A stretch of 64,000 nt of DNA from Escherichia coli (GTDB lineage: Bacteria > Pseudomonadota > Gammaproteobacteria > Enterobacterales > Enterobacteriaceae). Shown piece by piece: positions 2,919 to 53,336 of the stretch; positions within the stretch are counted from its first letter, which is position 1; every line of letters starts with the position of its first letter. The position numbers and the translations under genes are program-made. The stretch lies in the NCBI RefSeq assembly GCF_001677475.2, contig NZ_CP015229.1. One strand, given 5' to 3'. The notes beneath the pieces were generated by a model, which ran no database searches, was not told where the DNA came from, and saw only the letters and a program-made list of their open reading frames with translations.

Positions 2919-4826
2919 ATGTCATTAATCAGTATGCATGGCGCATGGCTGTCGTTCAGCGACGCGCCGCTTCTCGATAACGCAGAACTGCATATCGAAG
3001 ATAACGAACGTGTTTGTCTGGTGGGCCGCAACGGCGCAGGCAAATCGACGTTAATGAAAATCCTCAACCGTGAACAAGGGCTGGATGACGGTCGCATTAT
3101 TTACGAGCAAGATTTGATTGTAGCTCGTCTGCAACAGGATCCGCCGCGTAACGTTGAGGGGAGTGTTTATGATTTCGTTGCCGAAGGCATTGAAGAACAA
3201 GCGGAATACCTGAAACGCTATCACGATATTTCGCGCCTGGTGATGAACGACCCGAGCGAGAAAAATCTCAACGAACTGGCGAAGGTTCAGGAACAGCTGG
3301 ATCACCACAACCTGTGGCAGCTGGAAAACCGCATCAACGAAGTGCTGGCGCAACTGGGGTTAGATCCTAACGTTGCGCTGTCGTCGCTTTCCGGCGGCTG
3401 GTTGCGTAAAGCGGCATTAGGACGCGCGCTGGTGAGCAATCCGCGCGTATTGCTGCTCGACGAACCGACTAACCACCTGGATATCGAAACCATCGACTGG
3501 CTGGAAGGATTCCTTAAAACCTTCAATGGGACGATAATTTTCATCTCCCACGACCGTTCGTTTATCCGCAATATGGCGACGCGCATTGTTGATCTCGATC
3601 GCGGCAAGCTTGTGACCTATCCTGGGAATTACGACCAGTACCTGCTGGAAAAAGAAGAAGCCCTGCGCGTGGAAGAACTACAAAATGCCGAGTTCGATCG
3701 CAAACTGGCGCAGGAAGAGGTGTGGATCCGCCAGGGGATCAAAGCACGCCGTACCCGTAATGAAGGCCGCGTACGCGCCCTGAAAGCAATGCGTCGCGAG
3801 CGTGGCGAACGTCGCGAAGTGATGGGTACCGCAAAGATGCAGGTGGAAGAGGCCAGCCGTTCCGGTAAGATCGTTTTCGAAATGGAAGACGTTTGCTACC
3901 AGGTCGACGGTAAGCAACTGGTGAAAGATTTTTCGGCCCAGGTTCTACGTGGCGACAAAATTGCCCTGATTGGTCCGAATGGATGCGGCAAAACCACGCT
4001 GCTGAAACTGATGCTCGGTCAGCTTCAGGCGGACAGCGGGCGTATTCACGTTGGCACCAAACTGGAAGTGGCTTATTTCGATCAGCACCGTGCGGAACTG
4101 GATCCCGATAAAACGGTGATGGATAACCTTGCTGAAGGTAAGCAAGAGGTGATGGTTAACGGCAAGCCACGCCATGTTTTGGGCTATTTGCAGGACTTCC
4201 TGTTCCATCCGAAACGGGCGATGACGCCGGTACGTGCGCTTTCTGGCGGTGAGCGTAACCGCTTGTTGTTGGCGCGTTTGTTCCTCAAACCAAGCAACTT
4301 ATTGATTCTTGACGAACCGACCAACGATCTTGATGTTGAAACGCTGGAACTGCTGGAAGAACTGATCGACAGCTACCAGGGCACGGTATTGCTGGTGAGC
4401 CACGATCGTCAGTTTGTCGATAACACCGTTACAGAATGCTGGATCTTCGAAGGCGGCGGTAAAATTGGTCGTTATGTCGGCGGTTATCATGATGCCCGTG
4501 GTCAGCAAGAACAGTATGTGGCGCTCAAACAGCCTGCGGTGAAAAAAATCGAAGAAGCCGCCGCGCCAAAAGCAGAAACTGTAAAACGCAGCAGTAGCAA
4601 ACTAAGCTATAAATTGCAGCGCGAACTGGAGCAGCTACCGCAATTGCTCGAAGATCTGGAGGCGAAGCTGGAAGCCCTACAGACGCAGGTGGCGGATGCT
4701 TCCTTCTTCAGTCAGCCGCATGAGCAGACACAAAAAGTGCTCGCTGATATGGCTGCTGCAGAGCAGGAGCTGGAGCAAGCCTTTGAACGCTGGGAGTATC
4801 TTGAAGCGTTAAAAAATGGTGGCTGA
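2919..4826 (+). CDS. uup: ABC-F family ATPase Uup
   Basis: 635 aa, two ABC cassettes (GRNGAGKST / GPNGCGKTT, LSGGE signatures), C-terminal coiled coil. Confidence 0.93.
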   Translation: MSLISMHGAWLSFSDAPLLDNAELHIEDNERVCLVGRNGAGKSTLMKILNREQGLDDGRIIYEQDLIVARLQQDPPRNVEGSVYDFVAEGIEEQAEYLKRYHDISRLVMNDPSEKNLNELAKVQEQLDHHNLWQLENRINEVLAQLGLDPNVALSSLSGGWLRKAALGRALVSNPRVLLLDEPTNHLDIETIDWLEGFLKTFNGTIIFISHDRSFIRNMATRIVDLDRGKLVTYPGNYDQYLLEKEEALRVEELQNAEFDRKLAQEEVWIRQGIKARRTRNEGRVRALKAMRRERGERREVMGTAKMQVEEASRSGKIVFEMEDVCYQVDGKQLVKDFSAQVLRGDKIALIGPNGCGKTTLLKLMLGQLQADSGRIHVGTKLEVAYFDQHRAELDPDKTVMDNLAEGKQEVMVNGKPRHVLGYLQDFLFHPKRAMTPVRALSGGERNRLLLARLFLKPSNLLILDEPTNDLDVETLELLEELIDSYQGTVLLVSHDRQFVDNTVTECWIFEGGGKIGRYVGGYHDARGQQEQYVALKQPAVKKIEEAAAPKAETVKRSSSKLSYKLQRELEQLPQLLEDLEAKLEALQTQVADASFFSQPHEQTQKVLADMAAAEQELEQAFERWEYLEALKNGG

Positions 4827-14104: not shown

Positions 14105-14734
14105 ATGAAAAGCCTCTCCTATAAGCGGATCTATAAATCACAAGAATACCTGGCAACGTTGGGCACAATTGAATACCGATCATTGTTTGGTAGTTACAGC
14201 CTGACCGTTGACGACACGGTGTTTGCGATGGTTTCTGATGGTGAGTTGTATCTTCGGGCTTGTGAGCAAAGTGCACAGTACTGTGTAAAACATCCGCCTG
14301 TCTGGCTGACATATAAAAAGTGTGGCCGATCCGTTACCCTCAATTACTATCGGGTTGATGAAAGTCTATGGCGAAATCAACTGAAGCTGGTGCGTCTGTC
14401 GAAATATTCTCTCGATGCTGCGCTGAAAGAGAAAAGCACGCGCAATACCCGGGAAAGACTGAAAGATTTGCCCAATATGTCTTTTCATCTGGAAGCGATT
14501 CTCGGGGAGGTGGGGATTAAGGATGTACGGGCGTTACGTATACTTGGGGCAAAAATGTGTTGGTTGCGACTGCGGCAGCAAAACAGTCTGGTGACAGAAA
14601 AGATTCTGTTTATGCTTGAAGGGGCCATTATCGGCATTCATGAAGCTGCGCTCCCGGTGGCACGCCGCCAGGAGCTTGCAGAATGGGCTGACTCTCTTAC
14701 GCCGAAACAGGAGTTTCCTGCGGAACTTGAGTAA
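14105..14734 (+). CDS. sxy: Competence regulator Sxy/TfoX
   Basis: 209 aa MKSLSYKRIYKSQEYLATLG... Confidence 0.9.
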   Translation: MKSLSYKRIYKSQEYLATLGTIEYRSLFGSYSLTVDDTVFAMVSDGELYLRACEQSAQYCVKHPPVWLTYKKCGRSVTLNYYRVDESLWRNQLKLVRLSKYSLDAALKEKSTRNTRERLKDLPNMSFHLEAILGEVGIKDVRALRILGAKMCWLRLRQQNSLVTEKILFMLEGAIIGIHEAALPVARRQELAEWADSLTPKQEFPAELE

Positions 14735-30716: not shown

Positions 30717-31116
30717 AAGCGCATGCCGTTTAGTTACCGCTCTGATCATTCTTACTTGTCCGGTAATGGCGCTGACATCAGTATAAAGCGCCATTGCTGC
30801 TTCTTTGCCGATCCCAGGATGCCTTCCATTCTGATGTTTGACTTCGCCCACTGAGAAATCCTCTGTTTCCCCTTAACGCCGGGGTAGCGGAACAAAAACC
30901 TGCTGCATAGTTAAAGTTGAACCCTGCCGTCATGTTCTTACGCCTCGGGCTGGCTACTTAACCCCTGACCACTGCCTGGTAACTCGAAGTATTGCCCTGC
31001 GTTTTGTGGGGCGGGGTGGGTTAGTAAAAATAGTTTATACAAAAATAAACTAAACAGTCAATATGCAACTTAACTCTTTGGCGAGGATAACCCCTGTTGA
31101 GAGGGGCTTCGGGGGA

Positions 31117-31404: not shown

Positions 31405-31596
31405 TTACTGCTTGCTCCGTTCCTTGCGCATGTTAGCAAAGCGTTCAGCCATTCTGCGTTCAACTTCGTCATGTGGGATGGCTGGACGTGGATCAGCAAG
31501 GCTTGCGGCCACTTTTGCACGCAGCCATTCGTTATAACTATTTTCTTGCTCGATGGTTTCAAATTCAGAAACCATTGGTGAAAGGGCTGTGTTCAT
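31405..31596 (-). CDS. Cognate antitoxin (small acidic DNA-binding protein)
   Basis: 63 aa from MNTALSPMVSEFE...; abuts the toxin start. Confidence 0.5.
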   Translation of the reverse strand: MNTALSPMVSEFETIEQENSYNEWLRAKVAASLADPRPAIPHDEVERRMAERFANMRKERSKQ

Positions 31597-31631
31597 GGCG
31601 AACCTCGTTTTGTAAGTGCTGGTAATTCTGC

Positions 31632-32027
31632 CTAGGTAACTTTTTGTTGTGCTGCTAGCCACCTTGCAACTATACGATCCATTGTCTCTTTTTTTTCCTT
31701 CATATCTTTAAGTATTTGCTGTTGATCTTCCTCTGGAAATGCCTCAAATGTTTGAAGTAGCTCCTTTTGCTTAGGAGATATTTTTAATATATCCTGTGTT
31801 TTGTCTTCTTTTTCTTCATTTAATGGTAAGAAAAACCAATGTTGGGGAAAACCCGTTACTTCAGATAGTTTATCTAGATTAGCTGCTGTAGGGCTTGATA
31901 TACCACAAACCCACCTTTGGACGGATTGTTGAGCAATACCAATTCTGCGCGCAAGCTCTGCTTGACTCCAGCCTTTTTCTAATAGAAGCATCTTAATTCT
32001 AAGAGCACTAATTTCGAGTACGCCCAT
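31632..32027 (-). CDS. XRE-family HTH repressor (CI/RacR-like), paralog A
   Basis: N-terminal HTH LRIKMLLLEKGWSQAELARRIGIAQQSVQRW; C-terminal domain shared with the next ORF. Confidence 0.65.
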   Translation of the reverse strand: MGVLEISALRIKMLLLEKGWSQAELARRIGIAQQSVQRWVCGISSPTAANLDKLSEVTGFPQHWFFLPLNEEKEDKTQDILKISPKQKELLQTFEAFPEEDQQQILKDMKEKKETMDRIVARWLAAQQKVT

Positions 32028-32057
32028 CTGATATCTCTTGTTCCAGTATGTATCCCG

Positions 32058-32429
32058 TCAGGCTCGGCGACCTTGTCGCGCCAACCAACGTGCAACAAGA
32101 TCTTCCATTGCCTCTTTTTTATTTCTTAGTTCTTTTATGATCTCCTGCTGTTCATTATCAGGAAAAGCACTAAATATTTGTAGTAATTCCAATTGGTTAG
32201 GGGTTAATGCCATAGATCTTGATGACGAAGATTCTGTTGTGTCTTCAGGTTCCATATCAAGATAACCCCCAGGCATCCCATATGTTTGCTCAATACGTCT
32301 AGCTGCCTTTTCGCCAAACGTAGATTTACCGCTCATTAACTGAGATAAGTAACTTTTCTCTTTAGGCGGCAAAGTCCTGTCTTTGAACCACTCTTTGAGG
32401 CGTAAACGCCGAATCTCTTTTGTTTCCAT
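32058..32429 (-). CDS. HTH repressor, paralog B, divergent from cro-like gene
   Basis: C-terminus LTPNQLELLQIFSAFPDNEQQEIIKELRNKKEAMEDLVARWLA parallels paralog A. Confidence 0.6.
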   Translation of the reverse strand: METKEIRRLRLKEWFKDRTLPPKEKSYLSQLMSGKSTFGEKAARRIEQTYGMPGGYLDMEPEDTTESSSSRSMALTPNQLELLQIFSAFPDNEQQEIIKELRNKKEAMEDLVARWLARQGRRA

Positions 32430-32531
32430 ACATTCATTATCTTTAGTAATTGCAAAACAAGCAAATACTTGACTGGTTTATTTAGTTGCGTATAAACTTT
32501 CGCTTGTTCTAAATGTGCTGAGATAAAAATT
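32430..32531. promoter_or_regulatory. Divergent promoter/operator region of the immunity switch
   Basis: AT-rich intergenic region between divergent repressor and cro-like genes; AACAAGC/GCTTGTT inverted half-sites. Confidence 0.4.
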
Positions 32532-32819
32532 ATGACGCTAAAGGAATTCATCAAATCATTAAAAATTGGAGAAGCAAAAAAATTTGCGACCAACCTTGGT
32601 GTGTCTCCATCCTTCTTGTCCCAAATGGCATCTGGAACTTCACCTGTGTCTCCTGTTCGTGCGTTGATGATAGAAGCAGAAACTGGAGGACACGTTACAA
32701 GACGCGAATTGAGACCTAATGACTGGGAGCTTATATGGCCCGAATACACTGGAATCACGTCCCCTTCACGTCACAAATATGAACTTAACACCAAAAAGGC
32801 TGATGGGGTTGACTCATGA
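32532..32819 (+). CDS. Cro/YdaS-like HTH protein
   Basis: 95 aa; position and HTH as for Rac YdaS. Confidence 0.55.
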   Translation: MTLKEFIKSLKIGEAKKFATNLGVSPSFLSQMASGTSPVSPVRALMIEAETGGHVTRRELRPNDWELIWPEYTGITSPSRHKYELNTKKADGVDS

Positions 32820-33241
32820 TAATCAAGCATGAACACATCCGCATGGCGATGAATGCATGGGCGCATCCGGACGGTGAAAAAGTTCCGGCAGCTGAAATAA
32901 CCCGGGCTTATTTTGAGCTGGGTATGACGTTCCCGGAGCTATATGACGACAGGCATCCGGAAGCGCTGGCTCGTAATACCCAGAAAATTTTCCGCTGGCT
33001 GGATAAAGACACCCCTGATGCGGTTAAAAAAATTCAGGCGTTGTTACCAGCTATCGAAAAAGCAATGCCGCCTCTGCTGGTGGCCCGAATGCGCAGCCAC
33101 AGTTCAGCCTATTTTCGGGAACTGGTGGAGACGCGGGAACGACTGGTGAGAGACGCTGATGATTTTGTCGCAGTGGCGATCGCTGGTTTCAATCAGATGA
33201 ATCGTGGTGGTCCGGCGGGAAATGCCGTGGTGATGCACTAA
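32816..33241 (+). CDS. YdaT-like / CII-position protein
   Basis: 141 aa immediately after the cro-like gene. Confidence 0.4.
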   Translation: MIIKHEHIRMAMNAWAHPDGEKVPAAEITRAYFELGMTFPELYDDRHPEALARNTQKIFRWLDKDTPDAVKKIQALLPAIEKAMPPLLVARMRSHSSAYFRELVETRERLVRDADDFVAVAIAGFNQMNRGGPAGNAVVMH

Positions 33242-34274: not shown

Positions 34275-34676
34275 ATGGGGGCTATTTATACCGAAGAACA
34301 GCGGGAAAGGTTACAGCGTCACATCGTTGACCTTGTACGTAAAAACGGGCGTATGACAATGCCACAACTGGCATCGGCAACATATGCTTCACATGATTCC
34401 ATTCGCCGGTACCTGAAGATGCTGGTGAGCCAGGGCGAAGTGTATGTTGTCAGCGGAAAAGGGGTATTCCTTTCAGAGAGAGTTTACCGTGAATGGCTGG
34501 CAAGTTCGGCAAAAAAATCAAGGGTTATCCGCAAACCAGCACAAAAACAGGGTAAGGCCGGAGTACAACCCTACGACCGGCACCAGAACGTAATTTGCCG
34601 GGAATGTCGTAACAGCGAATCAATGCAGCGGGTACTGGCTTTTTACAGGGGTGGATTTCAGGAGCTCGTATCGTGA
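34275..34676 (+). CDS. Hypothetical protein
   Basis: 133-aa ORF. Confidence 0.4.
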   Translation: MGAIYTEEQRERLQRHIVDLVRKNGRMTMPQLASATYASHDSIRRYLKMLVSQGEVYVVSGKGVFLSERVYREWLASSAKKSRVIRKPAQKQGKAGVQPYDRHQNVICRECRNSESMQRVLAFYRGGFQELVS

Positions 34677-42379: not shown

Positions 42380-42455
42380 GGCCCTTTAGCTCAGTGGTGA
42401 GAGCGAGCGACTCATAATCGCCAGGTCGCTGGTTCAAATCCAGCAAGGGCCACCA
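42380..42455 (+). tRNA. tRNA with CAT anticodon (Met or Ile2-lysidine; ileZ-like)
   Basis: 76 nt cloverleaf, anticodon loop CTCATAA, terminal CCA. Confidence 0.8.
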
Positions 42456-42554: not shown

Positions 42555-42631
42555 GCGTTGTTAGCTCAGTCGGACAGAGCAATTGCCTTCTAAGCAATCG
42601 GTCACTGGTTCGAATCCAGTACAACGCGCCA
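42555..42631 (+). tRNA. tRNA-Arg (anticodon TCT; argO-like)
   Basis: 77 nt, anticodon loop CTTCTAA, GGTTCGAATCC T-loop, terminal CCA. Confidence 0.8.
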
Positions 42632-50504: not shown

Positions 50505-50790
50505 AAACCGCTTGCAAAAAATTATCACGGGACTGTATGCTTCCCGCGTCACCCACATGGTGACCGGGTTTGACAGCCTGAATACTACAGCGGACAGCCG
50601 CTTACATTCCGATATGCGGTTTTTTTGTGTCCGTAAACCTACCCATACCCGCATTATGGCGGGGCGTAACGGGGGAGCCTTTGCGCTCGCTGGTTCCTGT
50701 AGTGCCAGTCTGTCAACCCTGTTACGTCTCGCCACCATGTTTGACAGCGTAGTAGCGAGACTCCTTAATTTCACTACAGGAGCCTTTCAC

Positions 50791-51630: not shown

Positions 51631-51930
51631 ATGAAACTTAAATATTCTGGCTTAACTGCCAGCGGCCCCGCTCGGCCTGAAATCCGTAACGGCGATATTT
51701 ACCGCGACCAGTACGGTGGCACGGTAATGATTAAGGGCGTGGCGGGACGGTGCGTTACCTACCGCCGTGAAGGTTACGAATATGACTGCGTGATGCCTGT
51801 TTATCAGTTCCGGCGTGATTTTTCTCTGGTACAGGCAGCGCAACGCGGTAAGCCCACCAGCAACGCCAGGGCACGTGCAAACATCCAGAAACTGAAAACC
51901 ATGATTAACGGATTCAGGGGTAAAAAATGA
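51631..51930 (+). CDS. Hypothetical protein
   Basis: 99-aa ORF upstream of the rep gene. Confidence 0.35.
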   Translation: MKLKYSGLTASGPARPEIRNGDIYRDQYGGTVMIKGVAGRCVTYRREGYEYDCVMPVYQFRRDFSLVQAAQRGKPTSNARARANIQKLKTMINGFRGKK

Positions 51931-53336
51931 AACTGGCACCGAACGTAAAACTATTACCGAAAGATAAGCACACAGAAGCGATTATTTTCGCGGGTGTTGA
52001 TGCTCACTCATTTGCAGAGCACTACATCATTGCACAGGCCAAAAAGGCGGGAGACCCGACGCCTCCCGTTTACCTGGGCCGTTATCAGTTAAGCGAACTG
52101 GATAACTTGCAGATTGTTGATGAGGGGCGGTACAGGGCGACAGTGATACGCGCCGGAAATATTGACGAAGCGCAGCTGCTAACCATCGCGACGAAACTGG
52201 CGATCGCCGGAGTCCAGGAAGCGCGGCTGCTTTCTGAAAATTTCGAATTGCTGGAGAAATGGACCGACCAGCTACCACGGTTGCGGGAGACATGGGAGAG
52301 AGGGGAAAGCCTGGTAATGGCAAAAAACCCCCAACGAAACACCACGCTACCGATGAGCGTTGGATCTGCCGGATACGACACGCAGCTGGATTACGTGGTT
52401 AAGGGCATTATTCCGGCGTCGTCGCTGTGCAGCATATACGGGGCGAGCGGTTCCTATAAATCATTCCTTGCGGGTTCGTGGGCGTGTCACGTTTCCACGG
52501 GCCGCCAGTGGGGAGGCCGCAGGGTTGCGCATGGTGCCGTTCTCTATGTGGTTGGTGAAGGCGGTATTGGTGTACCACGTCGTGTAAAAGCCTGGGAGGT
52601 TGTGCACGATGTACAGGTGAAAAATCTGTACCTGGTAAACCGCCCCGTCTTTCCGGCGGTCCCGCTTGATGTTGATGAAATGGTTATCGCTGCCCGTCAG
52701 GTGGAGCGGGAAACGGGTAAACCTGTACGCATGATTATTCTGGATACGCTGGCGCGTTGCTTTGGCGGCAATGATGAAAATGATTCCCGTGATATGGGGG
52801 CGTTTATCCGTGGGTGTGACGAACTGAAACGACGCACAGGGGCTACGGTGCTGGTGGTTCACCATTCCGGCAAGGATGAGACGAAAGGCGCGCGAGGTTC
52901 CAGTGCATTCCGTGCGTCACTGGATGCCGAATACCGGATACGCAGAGAGGACGCAGGAAGCGAGGCGCTGGTAATCTCATGTACCAAAATGAAGGACGCG
53001 GAGGAACTTAAAGAAGCCGCCTACGATTTGCGGGTGGTGGAGCTATTTACCGACGCTGACGGCGAATTAATTACGTCGCTGGTGGTGGTGGATAAGCCGC
53101 GTCCTCCCGTTGAACTGGAGCGCATCGAGGAGGCAGGCAACAAGACGGAAAACCATACCGCGTTATGGGGGTGCATCCGGTCGCGCACACAGAACGGTGA
53201 TAAGTGCACTATTGCGCTGTTACGTGACGATATGAAAAAGCTGGGGTATGAGATGAAGCACTTCAGCCGCTGGTTACGCAAGCTGGAAAAAGACGGGGTT
53301 ATTTATATCGACGGTGATGACGTAGGCACGCTGTAA
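51927..53336 (+). CDS. Replication protein: RepA-like RecA-fold helicase/ATPase with C-terminal DNA-binding region
   Basis: 469 aa; Walker A GASGSYKS, Walker B MIILD, HHSGKDETKGARGSSA; iterons immediately downstream. Confidence 0.7.
   Translation: MKLAPNVKLLPKDKHTEAIIFAGVDAHSFAEHYIIAQAKKAGDPTPPVYLGRYQLSELDNLQIVDEGRYRATVIRAGNIDEAQLLTIATKLAIAGVQEARLLSENFELLEKWTDQLPRLRETWERGESLVMAKNPQRNTTLPMSVGSAGYDTQLDYVVKGIIPASSLCSIYGASGSYKSFLAGSWACHVSTGRQWGGRRVAHGAVLYVVGEGGIGVPRRVKAWEVVHDVQVKNLYLVNRPVFPAVPLDVDEMVIAARQVERETGKPVRMIILDTLARCFGGNDENDSRDMGAFIRGCDELKRRTGATVLVVHHSGKDETKGARGSSAFRASLDAEYRIRREDAGSEALVISCTKMKDAEELKEAAYDLRVVELFTDADGELITSLVVVDKPRPPVELERIEEAGNKTENHTALWGCIRSRTQNGDKCTIALLRDDMKKLGYEMKHFSRWLRKLEKDGVIYIDGDDVGTL

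Follow-up and report, generated by a model that had tools for sequence, protein, structure and literature searches.

The question raised by the locus at positions 31632-33241 of a 64-kb stretch of Escherichia coli DNA (hereafter the window, i.e., the whole stretch that was analyzed) is why one prophage should carry two unlike repressor genes side by side. Four open reading frames (ORFs), all intact, make up this locus: genes A and B on the minus strand, and a ydaS-like and a ydaT-like gene that face them. This region constitutes the CP-933P-type immunity switch of a lambdoid prophage in E. coli, and the locus is a variant of that known system in which the new part is a second, foreign repressor in the repressor operon. 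Comparison of sequences identified gene B as an orthologue of PaaR2, which acts as the CI analogue in CP-933P, a cryptic prophage of E. coli O157:H7, and gene A as a foreign gene inserted as a single-gene cassette between paaR and paaA. The features of the locus and its immediate flanks are as follows.

31632-32027, minus strand: gene A, encoding a 131-amino acid (aa) repressor with an HTH_3 domain (434/DicA/Gifsy-type) and the shared C-terminal helical domain
32058-32429, minus strand: gene B, encoding the 123-aa PaaR2 orthologue (CI analogue), first gene of the leftward operon
32430-32531, no strand assigned: OR region, 102 bp between B and the ydaS-like gene, with PRM-like and PR-like promoters
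32532-32819, plus strand: ydaS-like gene, 95 aa, Cro analogue
32816-33241, plus strand: ydaT-like gene, 141 aa, CII analogue
31405-31596, minus strand: paaA-like antitoxin gene, 63 aa
31117-31404, minus strand: parE-like toxin gene, 95 aa, last gene of the leftward operon
31032-31061, minus strand: PL-like promoter and OL repeats, resembling PR in inverted orientation
31598-32057, minus strand: 460-bp insertion relative to B-only prophages, composed of gene A, a 34-bp 3' flank and a 30-bp 5' spacer
32809-32826, plus strand: YdaT-box-like inverted repeat TTGACTCATGATAATCAA at the ydaS/ydaT junction, in a PRE-like position

The insertion was delineated by comparison with relatives that carry B without A (B-only prophages). 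By blastn, alignments of the window to the STEC17-183 prophage and to CP-933P of strain EDL933 were both found to break exactly at 31597|32058. The EDL933 operon (paaR2-paaA2-parE2) has 20 bp between paaR2 and paaA2, and B-only loci have about 20 bp at this place. STEC17-183 (L008) and NCTC9112 (L009) have the same B (92% DNA identity) and no A, and the OR of STEC17-183, the B-only locus in which OR was compared, was identical to that of the window at 97 of 102 bases; therefore, no operator change accompanies A. The PaaA and ParE of the window were of the B-associated type, being 87-95% identical to those of EDL933 vs. 65-70% to those beside A-type repressors (65-68% for ParE alone), and therefore A arrived alone and not as an A-paaA-parE block. 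The comparative evidence from STEC17-183 and NCTC9112 also indicates that the second repressor is dispensable for the switch of its carrier. All tested CP-933P-type features were present except the three-gene operon structure: paaR is not directly followed by paaA, as gene A is inserted between them and the operon has four genes.

A different origin had been suggested by a first-pass annotation of the letters and ORFs, which described two adjacent minus-strand helix-turn-helix (HTH) proteins with a common C-terminal domain and suggested that they might be duplicated or hetero-oligomeric immunity repressors. The description was borne out, with HTH_3 in A and a PaaR2 N-terminal domain match in B, and so was the common domain, which was significant by pairwise alignment (36% identity over 77 C-terminal residues, BLASTP E=1e-18, and 49% over the ~50-aa core). 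Neither A nor B is a pseudogene in the window, a frameshift in one of the two having been raised there as a concern. The proposed duplication did not survive. Adjacency, same orientation and the common C-domain are as expected if one repressor gene had been locally duplicated in tandem and had then diverged; however, the N-domains are of different families (HTH_3/434-like vs. PaaR2-type), the C-domain of A clusters with those of stand-alone A-type proteins (67-69% identical vs. 49% to that of B), and the flanks reveal an insertion, absent from prophages of the same immunity, into an otherwise collinear B-only operon. Local duplication is thus already contradicted and is scarcely credible; the pair is best described, from these alignments, as a juxtaposition of two diverged family members.

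Gene B was assigned with the aid of solved structures. Residues 1-67 matched the PaaR2 N-terminal domain structure 7nkv (E=3.2e-31) with a handful of substitutions, as well as 8c3k and 8c3l ('PaaR2 regulator N-terminal domain'), and Foldseek returned 7nkv, 8c3k and 8c3l with a probability of 1.0. No Pfam match was found for B, and it is the match of its N-domain to the solved HTH domain of PaaR2 that establishes B as an HTH protein too. B was 73% identical overall to PaaR2 of EDL933 (67% in the C-domain), with an identical recognition helix. PaaR2 is leaderless in CP-933P (PMC8630535), and B probably is as well, the sequence conservation for a leaderless start being limited to promoter geometry (GATAAT, 6 nt, ATG). 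In RefSeq annotation (L001, L002, L003 and L008) the PaaR2 orthologue is a 'hypothetical protein' and YdaT a 'toxin YdaT family protein'; B can be named a CI-like repressor of the PaaR2 family, 'toxin YdaT' misleads in this case, and both labels lag behind the experimental literature. Within the region coding for the C-domain of B, 25 nt (32168-32192) were 76% identical to the PRM/first-repeat part of OR (32431-32455), which could represent an internal operator, an internal promoter or chance.

The circuit around B was found to resemble that of CP-933P in most respects. By promoter scan, a PRM-like promoter was detected with its -10 element (GATAAT, complement of 32436-32441) 6 nt before the B ATG and its -35 element (TTGCTT, complement of 32459-32464) at a spacing of 17, the same hexamers at the same distance from the start as in CP-933P. 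OR also has a PR-like promoter (TTGACT at 32469-32474 and TAAACT at 32493-32498, spacing 18). OR holds TTTAGT/GTTTAT repeats, and its left half, PRM hexamers included, is nearly base-for-base that of the footprinted 97-bp CP-933P region. Downstream of parE, inverted repeat I1 (30 nt at 80%, 31032-31061 vs. 32469-32498, both TTGACT-18-TAAACT) places a near-copy of PR at 31061-31032, which is the analogue of PL933P; PR and PL likewise resemble each other in CP-933P. The ydaS-like protein matched Pfam YdaS_toxin (1.2e-9) and was 65% identical to CP-933P YdaS, with a near-identical HTH. The ydaT-like protein, an orthologue of CP-933P YdaT, matched solved YdaT structures 3c4r (1e-87) and 8bt1 (6e-81), Pfam YdaT_toxin (1.5e-10) and PHROG 163 (CII-like activator, 2e-45). 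The published YdaT site is TTGATT-N6-AATCAA (PMC9986795), and in CP-933P PRE lies at the ydaS/ydaT junction (PMC8630535), where CP-933P and the window both have a YdaT-box-like site; TTGACTCATGATAATCAA has one mismatch to the published box, and as such a single match is not above chance window-wide, only its position is meaningful. The paaA-like protein matched solved PaaA2 (3zbe, E=8.9e-35) and the NCBIfam RelB antitoxin model (3.6e-24) and was 95% identical to PaaA2 of EDL933, and the parE-like protein matched solved ParE2 (5cw7, E=2.7e-55) at 87% identity to ParE2 of EDL933, both again as orthologues.

The CP-933P/Sp12 immunity region is reportedly also covered by Hallez et al. 2010. In this region of E. 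coli O157:H7, paaR2-paaA2-parE2 faces ydaS-ydaT (Jurenas et al. 2021, PMC8630535), PaaR2, YdaS and YdaT were shown by experiment to be CI, Cro and CII analogues, with YdaS and YdaT thus not toxins, and PaaA2-ParE2 is an addiction module embedded in the operon (PMC8630535). The prophage position is also the same, with the dicB side to the left and O/P-like replication genes to the right. Besides the fourth gene between paaR and paaA, the window differs from CP-933P in that the right half of OR, the C-domain of B and YdaS have diverged, and it may therefore represent a distinct immunity group. B is the resident CI-like repressor, transcribed leftward from the PRM-like promoter, and would run the prophage's own switch as does PaaR2; by homology it binds TTTAGT-type repeats at OR and OL in competition with YdaS, with YdaT predicted to drive a PRE-like promoter and the PaaA-ParE toxin-antitoxin carried in the operon of B.

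The first-pass annotation had compared this arrangement to that of the Rac prophage, in which derepression of ydaS/ydaT is toxic. Immunity-type repressors do face a Cro-like YdaS gene and a YdaT gene, as it stated, and the Rac likeness extends to a leftward repressor facing ydaS-ydaT (of the same Pfam families), followed by replication genes. The kinship to racR/ydaS-ydaT of E. coli K-12 is nonetheless not close, as K-12 YdaS and YdaT were 36% and 32% identical to the window proteins, and RacR had no tblastn match in the window at E<=0.01 and was 19% identical to A when aligned. The ydaS/ydaT pair stands, and its reading as toxins does not for the closest relative, CP-933P, in which PaaA-ParE is the real toxin-antitoxin: toxicity, a matter of dispute and confined to work on Rac, was reported for derepressed ydaS/ydaT of Rac (PMC5700373, PMC5700377) but not seen for CP-933P YdaT (PMC8630535).

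Gene A encodes a repressor of another class. Its N-domain matched Pfam HTH_3 (1e-12), and its AlphaFold2 model matched 434 Cro, P22 C2 and SinR; the domain is a classical five-helix HTH of the 434/P22/SinR kind. The 434 base-contacting residues Q17, Q28 and Q29 were invariant across A-type proteins, and the recognition helix of A, QQSVQRW, is 434-like. The NCBIfam DicA model (NF007257, cut-off 101 bits) was matched by A over nearly its full length (3e-15, 56.2 bits) and by B at 32.3 bits, both proteins matching the C-terminal part of the model. A was 34% identical to the Gifsy-1 and Gifsy-2 repressors, and no S24 cleavage domain was found in A or B by Pfam scans. A falls within the broad class of short, non-cleavable repressors that includes DicA and the Gifsy repressors and is not a DicA orthologue: like DicA (Qin, E. 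coli K-12) and the Gifsy-1/-2 repressors (Salmonella) it has HTH_3, a linker, a ~45-aa helical C-domain and no S24, and it differs in falling far below the DicA cut-off and in sitting inside the operon of another repressor. In other prophages, from E. coli, Salmonella, Klebsiella and Raoultella, an A-type protein is the only repressor at the CI position, and at seven A-only loci the A-type gene faces its own Cro-like gene. By contrast, A of the window is internal to the operon of B, without a Cro partner, promoter or operators of its own. Its start is preceded, in the 30-bp spacer, by a conserved AAGAG Shine-Dalgarno-like motif 7 nt 5' of the ATG. PADLOC returned generic HTH matches alone for A, and none for B, PaaA or ParE. 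The C-terminal tail of A varies by tandem lineage: it is canonical (...KGHRA) in L006 (2727-2745), shortened (...QQKVT) in the window (31632-31650) and L001, and extended by a 22-residue read-through that overlaps the paaA start in L002 (3166-3230) and L016.

Operators for A were sought on the basis of its stand-alone relatives. At the seven stand-alone A-type loci, OR was found to hold ACA-N9-TGT-like sites that are 15 bp long, T/A-rich at the centre and spaced at even intervals; the four loci that were tabulated (L110-L113) had three such sites per OR, and similar sites were present at OL in those A-only loci where OL was examined. No ACA-N9-TGT site was detected in OR or OL of the window, and the 64 kb as a whole had 12 matches (16.5 +/- 4.6 expected), none of them clustered. 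ACAC-N7-GTGT and relaxed AT-rich versions were likewise absent from OR and OL and were not clustered anywhere in the window, and no other repeated palindrome with 5- or 6-bp arms was found across it. This absence of cognate operators holds only if A keeps the ACA-N9-TGT type of site of its family. A residue-to-base code relating helix position 6 (R/K/Q) to operator position 4 was tried and rejected, as QQTVQR paired with ACAC and QQTVQQ with ACAA/G, but QQSIQR failed; because of this failure, a family-level site is all that is claimed for A.

Among 5,426 complete E. coli genomes, the A-B tandem was found in 16, B-type alone in ~590 and A-type alone in ~100; the tandem was also present in 10 IMG/VR contigs. 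The DNA of the locus was 96% identical to a prophage of E. coli SCU-171, and 6.4 kb was at 100% identity to IMG/VR contig IMGVR_UViG_2721755653_000010. Selection was examined in four tandem lineages (synonymous divergence, dS, up to about 0.5, and up to 0.49 for A overall), of which three were scored for DNA identity to the window (88-96%). The ratio of nonsynonymous to synonymous divergence (dN/dS) was 0.15-0.24 for A overall, 0.05-0.20 for its N-domain (at dS 0.25-0.5) and 0.15-0.45 for its C-domain, compared to <=0.12 in each domain of B, and all tandem lineages had the same A recognition helix, AQQSVQRW. Purifying selection acts on A, most strongly in the DNA-binding domain. These values bear on whether A is a functionless relic of recombination between heteroimmune lambdoid phages that hitch-hikes beside the addictive PaaA-ParE. 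Lambdoid immunity regions do recombine readily (PMC8630535), decayed copies exist (L022, L104, P0073 and P0079) and the C-terminal tail of A is unstable. The constraint on the HTH domain argues against a relic, however, as do the full-length annotation of A in 16 of 16 tandem genomes (with the frame found intact in the lineages examined), the conserved Shine-Dalgarno-like motif, and the insertion itself, a precise single-gene cassette and not a ragged hybrid junction; we regard a relic as quite improbable. As to the broken copies, A is frameshifted in its linker, after ...LNEEKK, in two independent sequences (L022:2995-3800; L104:2926-3296; P0073, P0079), B is frameshifted near its C-terminus in L022 and disrupted at its N-terminus in L104, and annotated 66-72-aa ORFs with the C-domain only remain. 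These copies reflect either decay or sequencing error.

Since A-type operators are missing at home and other prophages run this switch without A, the most likely mode of action for A is in trans. We tentatively propose, at a little short of an even chance, that A, as a captured repressor acting in trans, provides a second (heterotypic) immunity specificity or cross-repression. The cassette would have gained a ribosome-binding site and would be co-transcribed with B from the lysogenic promoter, and in the lysogen the targets of A would be ACA-N9-TGT-type operators in lambdoid phages or prophages of the A type. Several observations weigh against this proposal. No binding site for A was found anywhere in the window. 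The helix AQQSVQRW was seen only in tandem-context proteins and the nearest stand-alone relatives of A were <=69% identical, so that there is no phage with demonstrably cognate operators, and helix residue 6 and operator position 4 do not form a clean code. Among tandem copies, both genes are frameshifted in L022 and B is disrupted in L104. The shared C-domain and the obligatory co-expression with B, moreover, fit a physical interaction of A with B equally well.

A trans-acting A need not serve immunity, and could instead be a transcription factor for host genes or for another resident element. The absence of cis operators and the DNA-binding domain as the most conserved part of A would suit this alternative. 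On the other hand, every stand-alone relative of A that was examined is a CI-position phage repressor with phage operators, and the host DNA in the window, 24 kb in all, yielded no target. The single AT-rich ACA-N9-TGT match, which was also the best match, is at position 14309 (ACATATAAAAAGTGT) and lies within the coding sequence of ORF 14105-14734, which we take, as recognised by eye, to be the host sxy/tfoX gene; this match was judged to be due to chance. Prophage regulators that act on host operons are documented (PMC11879457; PMC11430063), and regulators of Rac and Qin are reported to do so. On balance, a host target is improbable.

The shared C-domain brings in the main rival to the trans-acting repressor, namely that mixed dimers or octamers of A and B form through the C-terminal helical domains, with A modulating the cooperativity or looping of B, or tethering B-bound OR/OL to A-type sites elsewhere. 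PHROG 5736 was matched by both proteins (A, 1e-15; B, 1e-29), and the AlphaFold models (predicted local distance difference test of 77 and 78) were alike for A and B in having a disordered acidic linker between the helical DNA-binding domain and a C-terminal part made up of a short helix and a ~30-residue helix. The predicted helix-turn-long-helix architecture, the 49% identity of the C-domains with conserved hydrophobic positions (L90, L91, F94, A96, F97 and P98), and the genes lying 30 bp apart in one operon, so that the proteins would be made together, are all consistent with co-assembly. SinR, SlrR and SinI of Bacillus subtilis are HTH regulators that heteromerise through a common C-terminal helical domain. 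Over 95 columns, the A model could be aligned to SinR as it occurs in the SinR/SinI complex (1b0n), and the likeness is that two HTH proteins have short, helical C-domains homologous to each other; the C-domains of the two systems are unrelated in sequence, and the comparison serves as an analogy for the hetero-oligomer alone. PaaR2 is reported to octamerise in solution (PMC8630535, citing De Bruyn 2019). Against co-assembly, the same B and the same OR exist in B-only prophages, so that the switch does not need A, and no A-type half-sites were found beside B-type sites at OR/OL. Furthermore, the C-domain of A is less constrained than its N-domain, with a tail that is shortened, canonical or extended by lineage, and the A/B C-domain identity is about the same in tandem loci (48-51%) as between non-tandem A- and B-types (51-57%), with no signal of convergence or of insulation between the C-domains in tandem loci. 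Co-assembly is thus unlikely, yet to be taken seriously.

A combination of the two is also conceivable, in which a mixed A/B particle with two DNA-reading heads links the OR/OL switch of its prophage to operators that belong to another immunity group. A fused form of such a particle would be the single 250-aa ORF at L106:4001-4753 (Logan SRR34266833 contig 149, one raw-read assembly), which consists of a lambda-CI-like HTH, an A-type HTH and one such C-domain, i.e., a single protein with two different HTH domains, which also speaks for co-assembly of A and B. We consider this combination rather unlikely. The L106 ORF faces cro-like and ydaT genes, and its OR and OL have AATAAC-N5-GTTATT-type sites only, as in L107, which match the first head only, with no ACA-N9-TGT. 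On a distant low-GC phage contig (L078:2673-4880, IMGVR_UViG_2744054871_000055), a PaaR2-type switch (ydaS', B') adjoins a complete A-type switch with its own small cro-like gene (~4244-4090, minus strand), A' (4364-4771) and PL-like repeats. The pairing of a resident head with an extra A-type head may thus recur (L078, L106).

The C-domain was found beyond A and B. DicA also carries it, and a third repressor type, P0147 (166 aa; L107:1680-2681, L108 and L109), joins a lambda-CI-like head to the same domain; its gene is followed by PaaA and ParE genes and faces cro-like and ydaT genes. This single ~45-aa helical domain goes with at least three different DNA-binding heads, which makes for a modular repressor family in which cross-talk is possible. 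No solved structure matched the domain in sequence and fold searches, and in a profile search for SinI-like proteins that consist of the C-domain only, short matches mostly began inside the HTH domain and resembled fragments. The PaaR2-type N-domain was also seen fused to an S24 (LexA-like) peptidase in ~210-aa proteins of Yersinia and others (P0110, P0113 and P0120), and therefore the same head occurs in SOS-cleavable and non-cleavable repressors. Instances of 'CI followed by DicA' in phage phi467 and Stx2a phages were rejected as counterparts of the tandem, as the downstream proteins are without the shared C-domain and lie behind PL.

A further alternative is that A is a decoy for an antirepressor and buffers B against induction. 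We know of no antirepressor for A, and no Rem homologue was found in the window by tblastn. Selection is strongest on the DNA-binding domain of A, which a decoy would not need. What favors a decoy is that A and B have the same C-domain and are both without S24, that DicA is inactivated by the antirepressor Rem (PMC10448788), and that the Gifsy repressors, to which A is related at the 34% identity given above, are inactivated by their own antirepressors (PMC3121763). These points leave a decoy very improbable.

If A is indeed a captured, trans-acting repressor, lambdoid prophages would be able to broaden their superinfection immunity by taking up a foreign repressor gene in the PRM operon, the slot where lambda carries rexAB. 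This would be a simple, portable inter-phage defence that is not described for the PaaR2/DicA class. An analogous case is mycobacteriophage Mcgavigan, which has a horizontally acquired 'Bxb1-like' repressor; lysogeny does not depend on this repressor, and heterotypic immunity does (PMC12700041). The likeness lies in a foreign second repressor in a temperate phage, its dispensability being deduced here from B-only prophages in which the operators are the same. The proteins and hosts are unrelated, however, and A is embedded in a PRM operon, shares a C-domain with the resident repressor, and would confer an immunity phenotype that is, by this analogy, a predicted one.

Elsewhere in the window, an ORF behind the O-like replication gene (34275-34676) matched PHROG 142 ('Ren-like exclusion protein', 1e-31), and two tRNA genes (42380-42452 and 42555-42628) lie downstream of the prophage early region. 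At 50652-50739, a full-length match to the Rfam C4 antisense RNA was detected (72 bits, E=4e-12), with a 469-aa ORF of unassigned function nearby (51927-53336). C4 antisense RNA is a regulator of the P1/P7 immI type, and either a separate element or a region for the control of an antirepressor may be located here.

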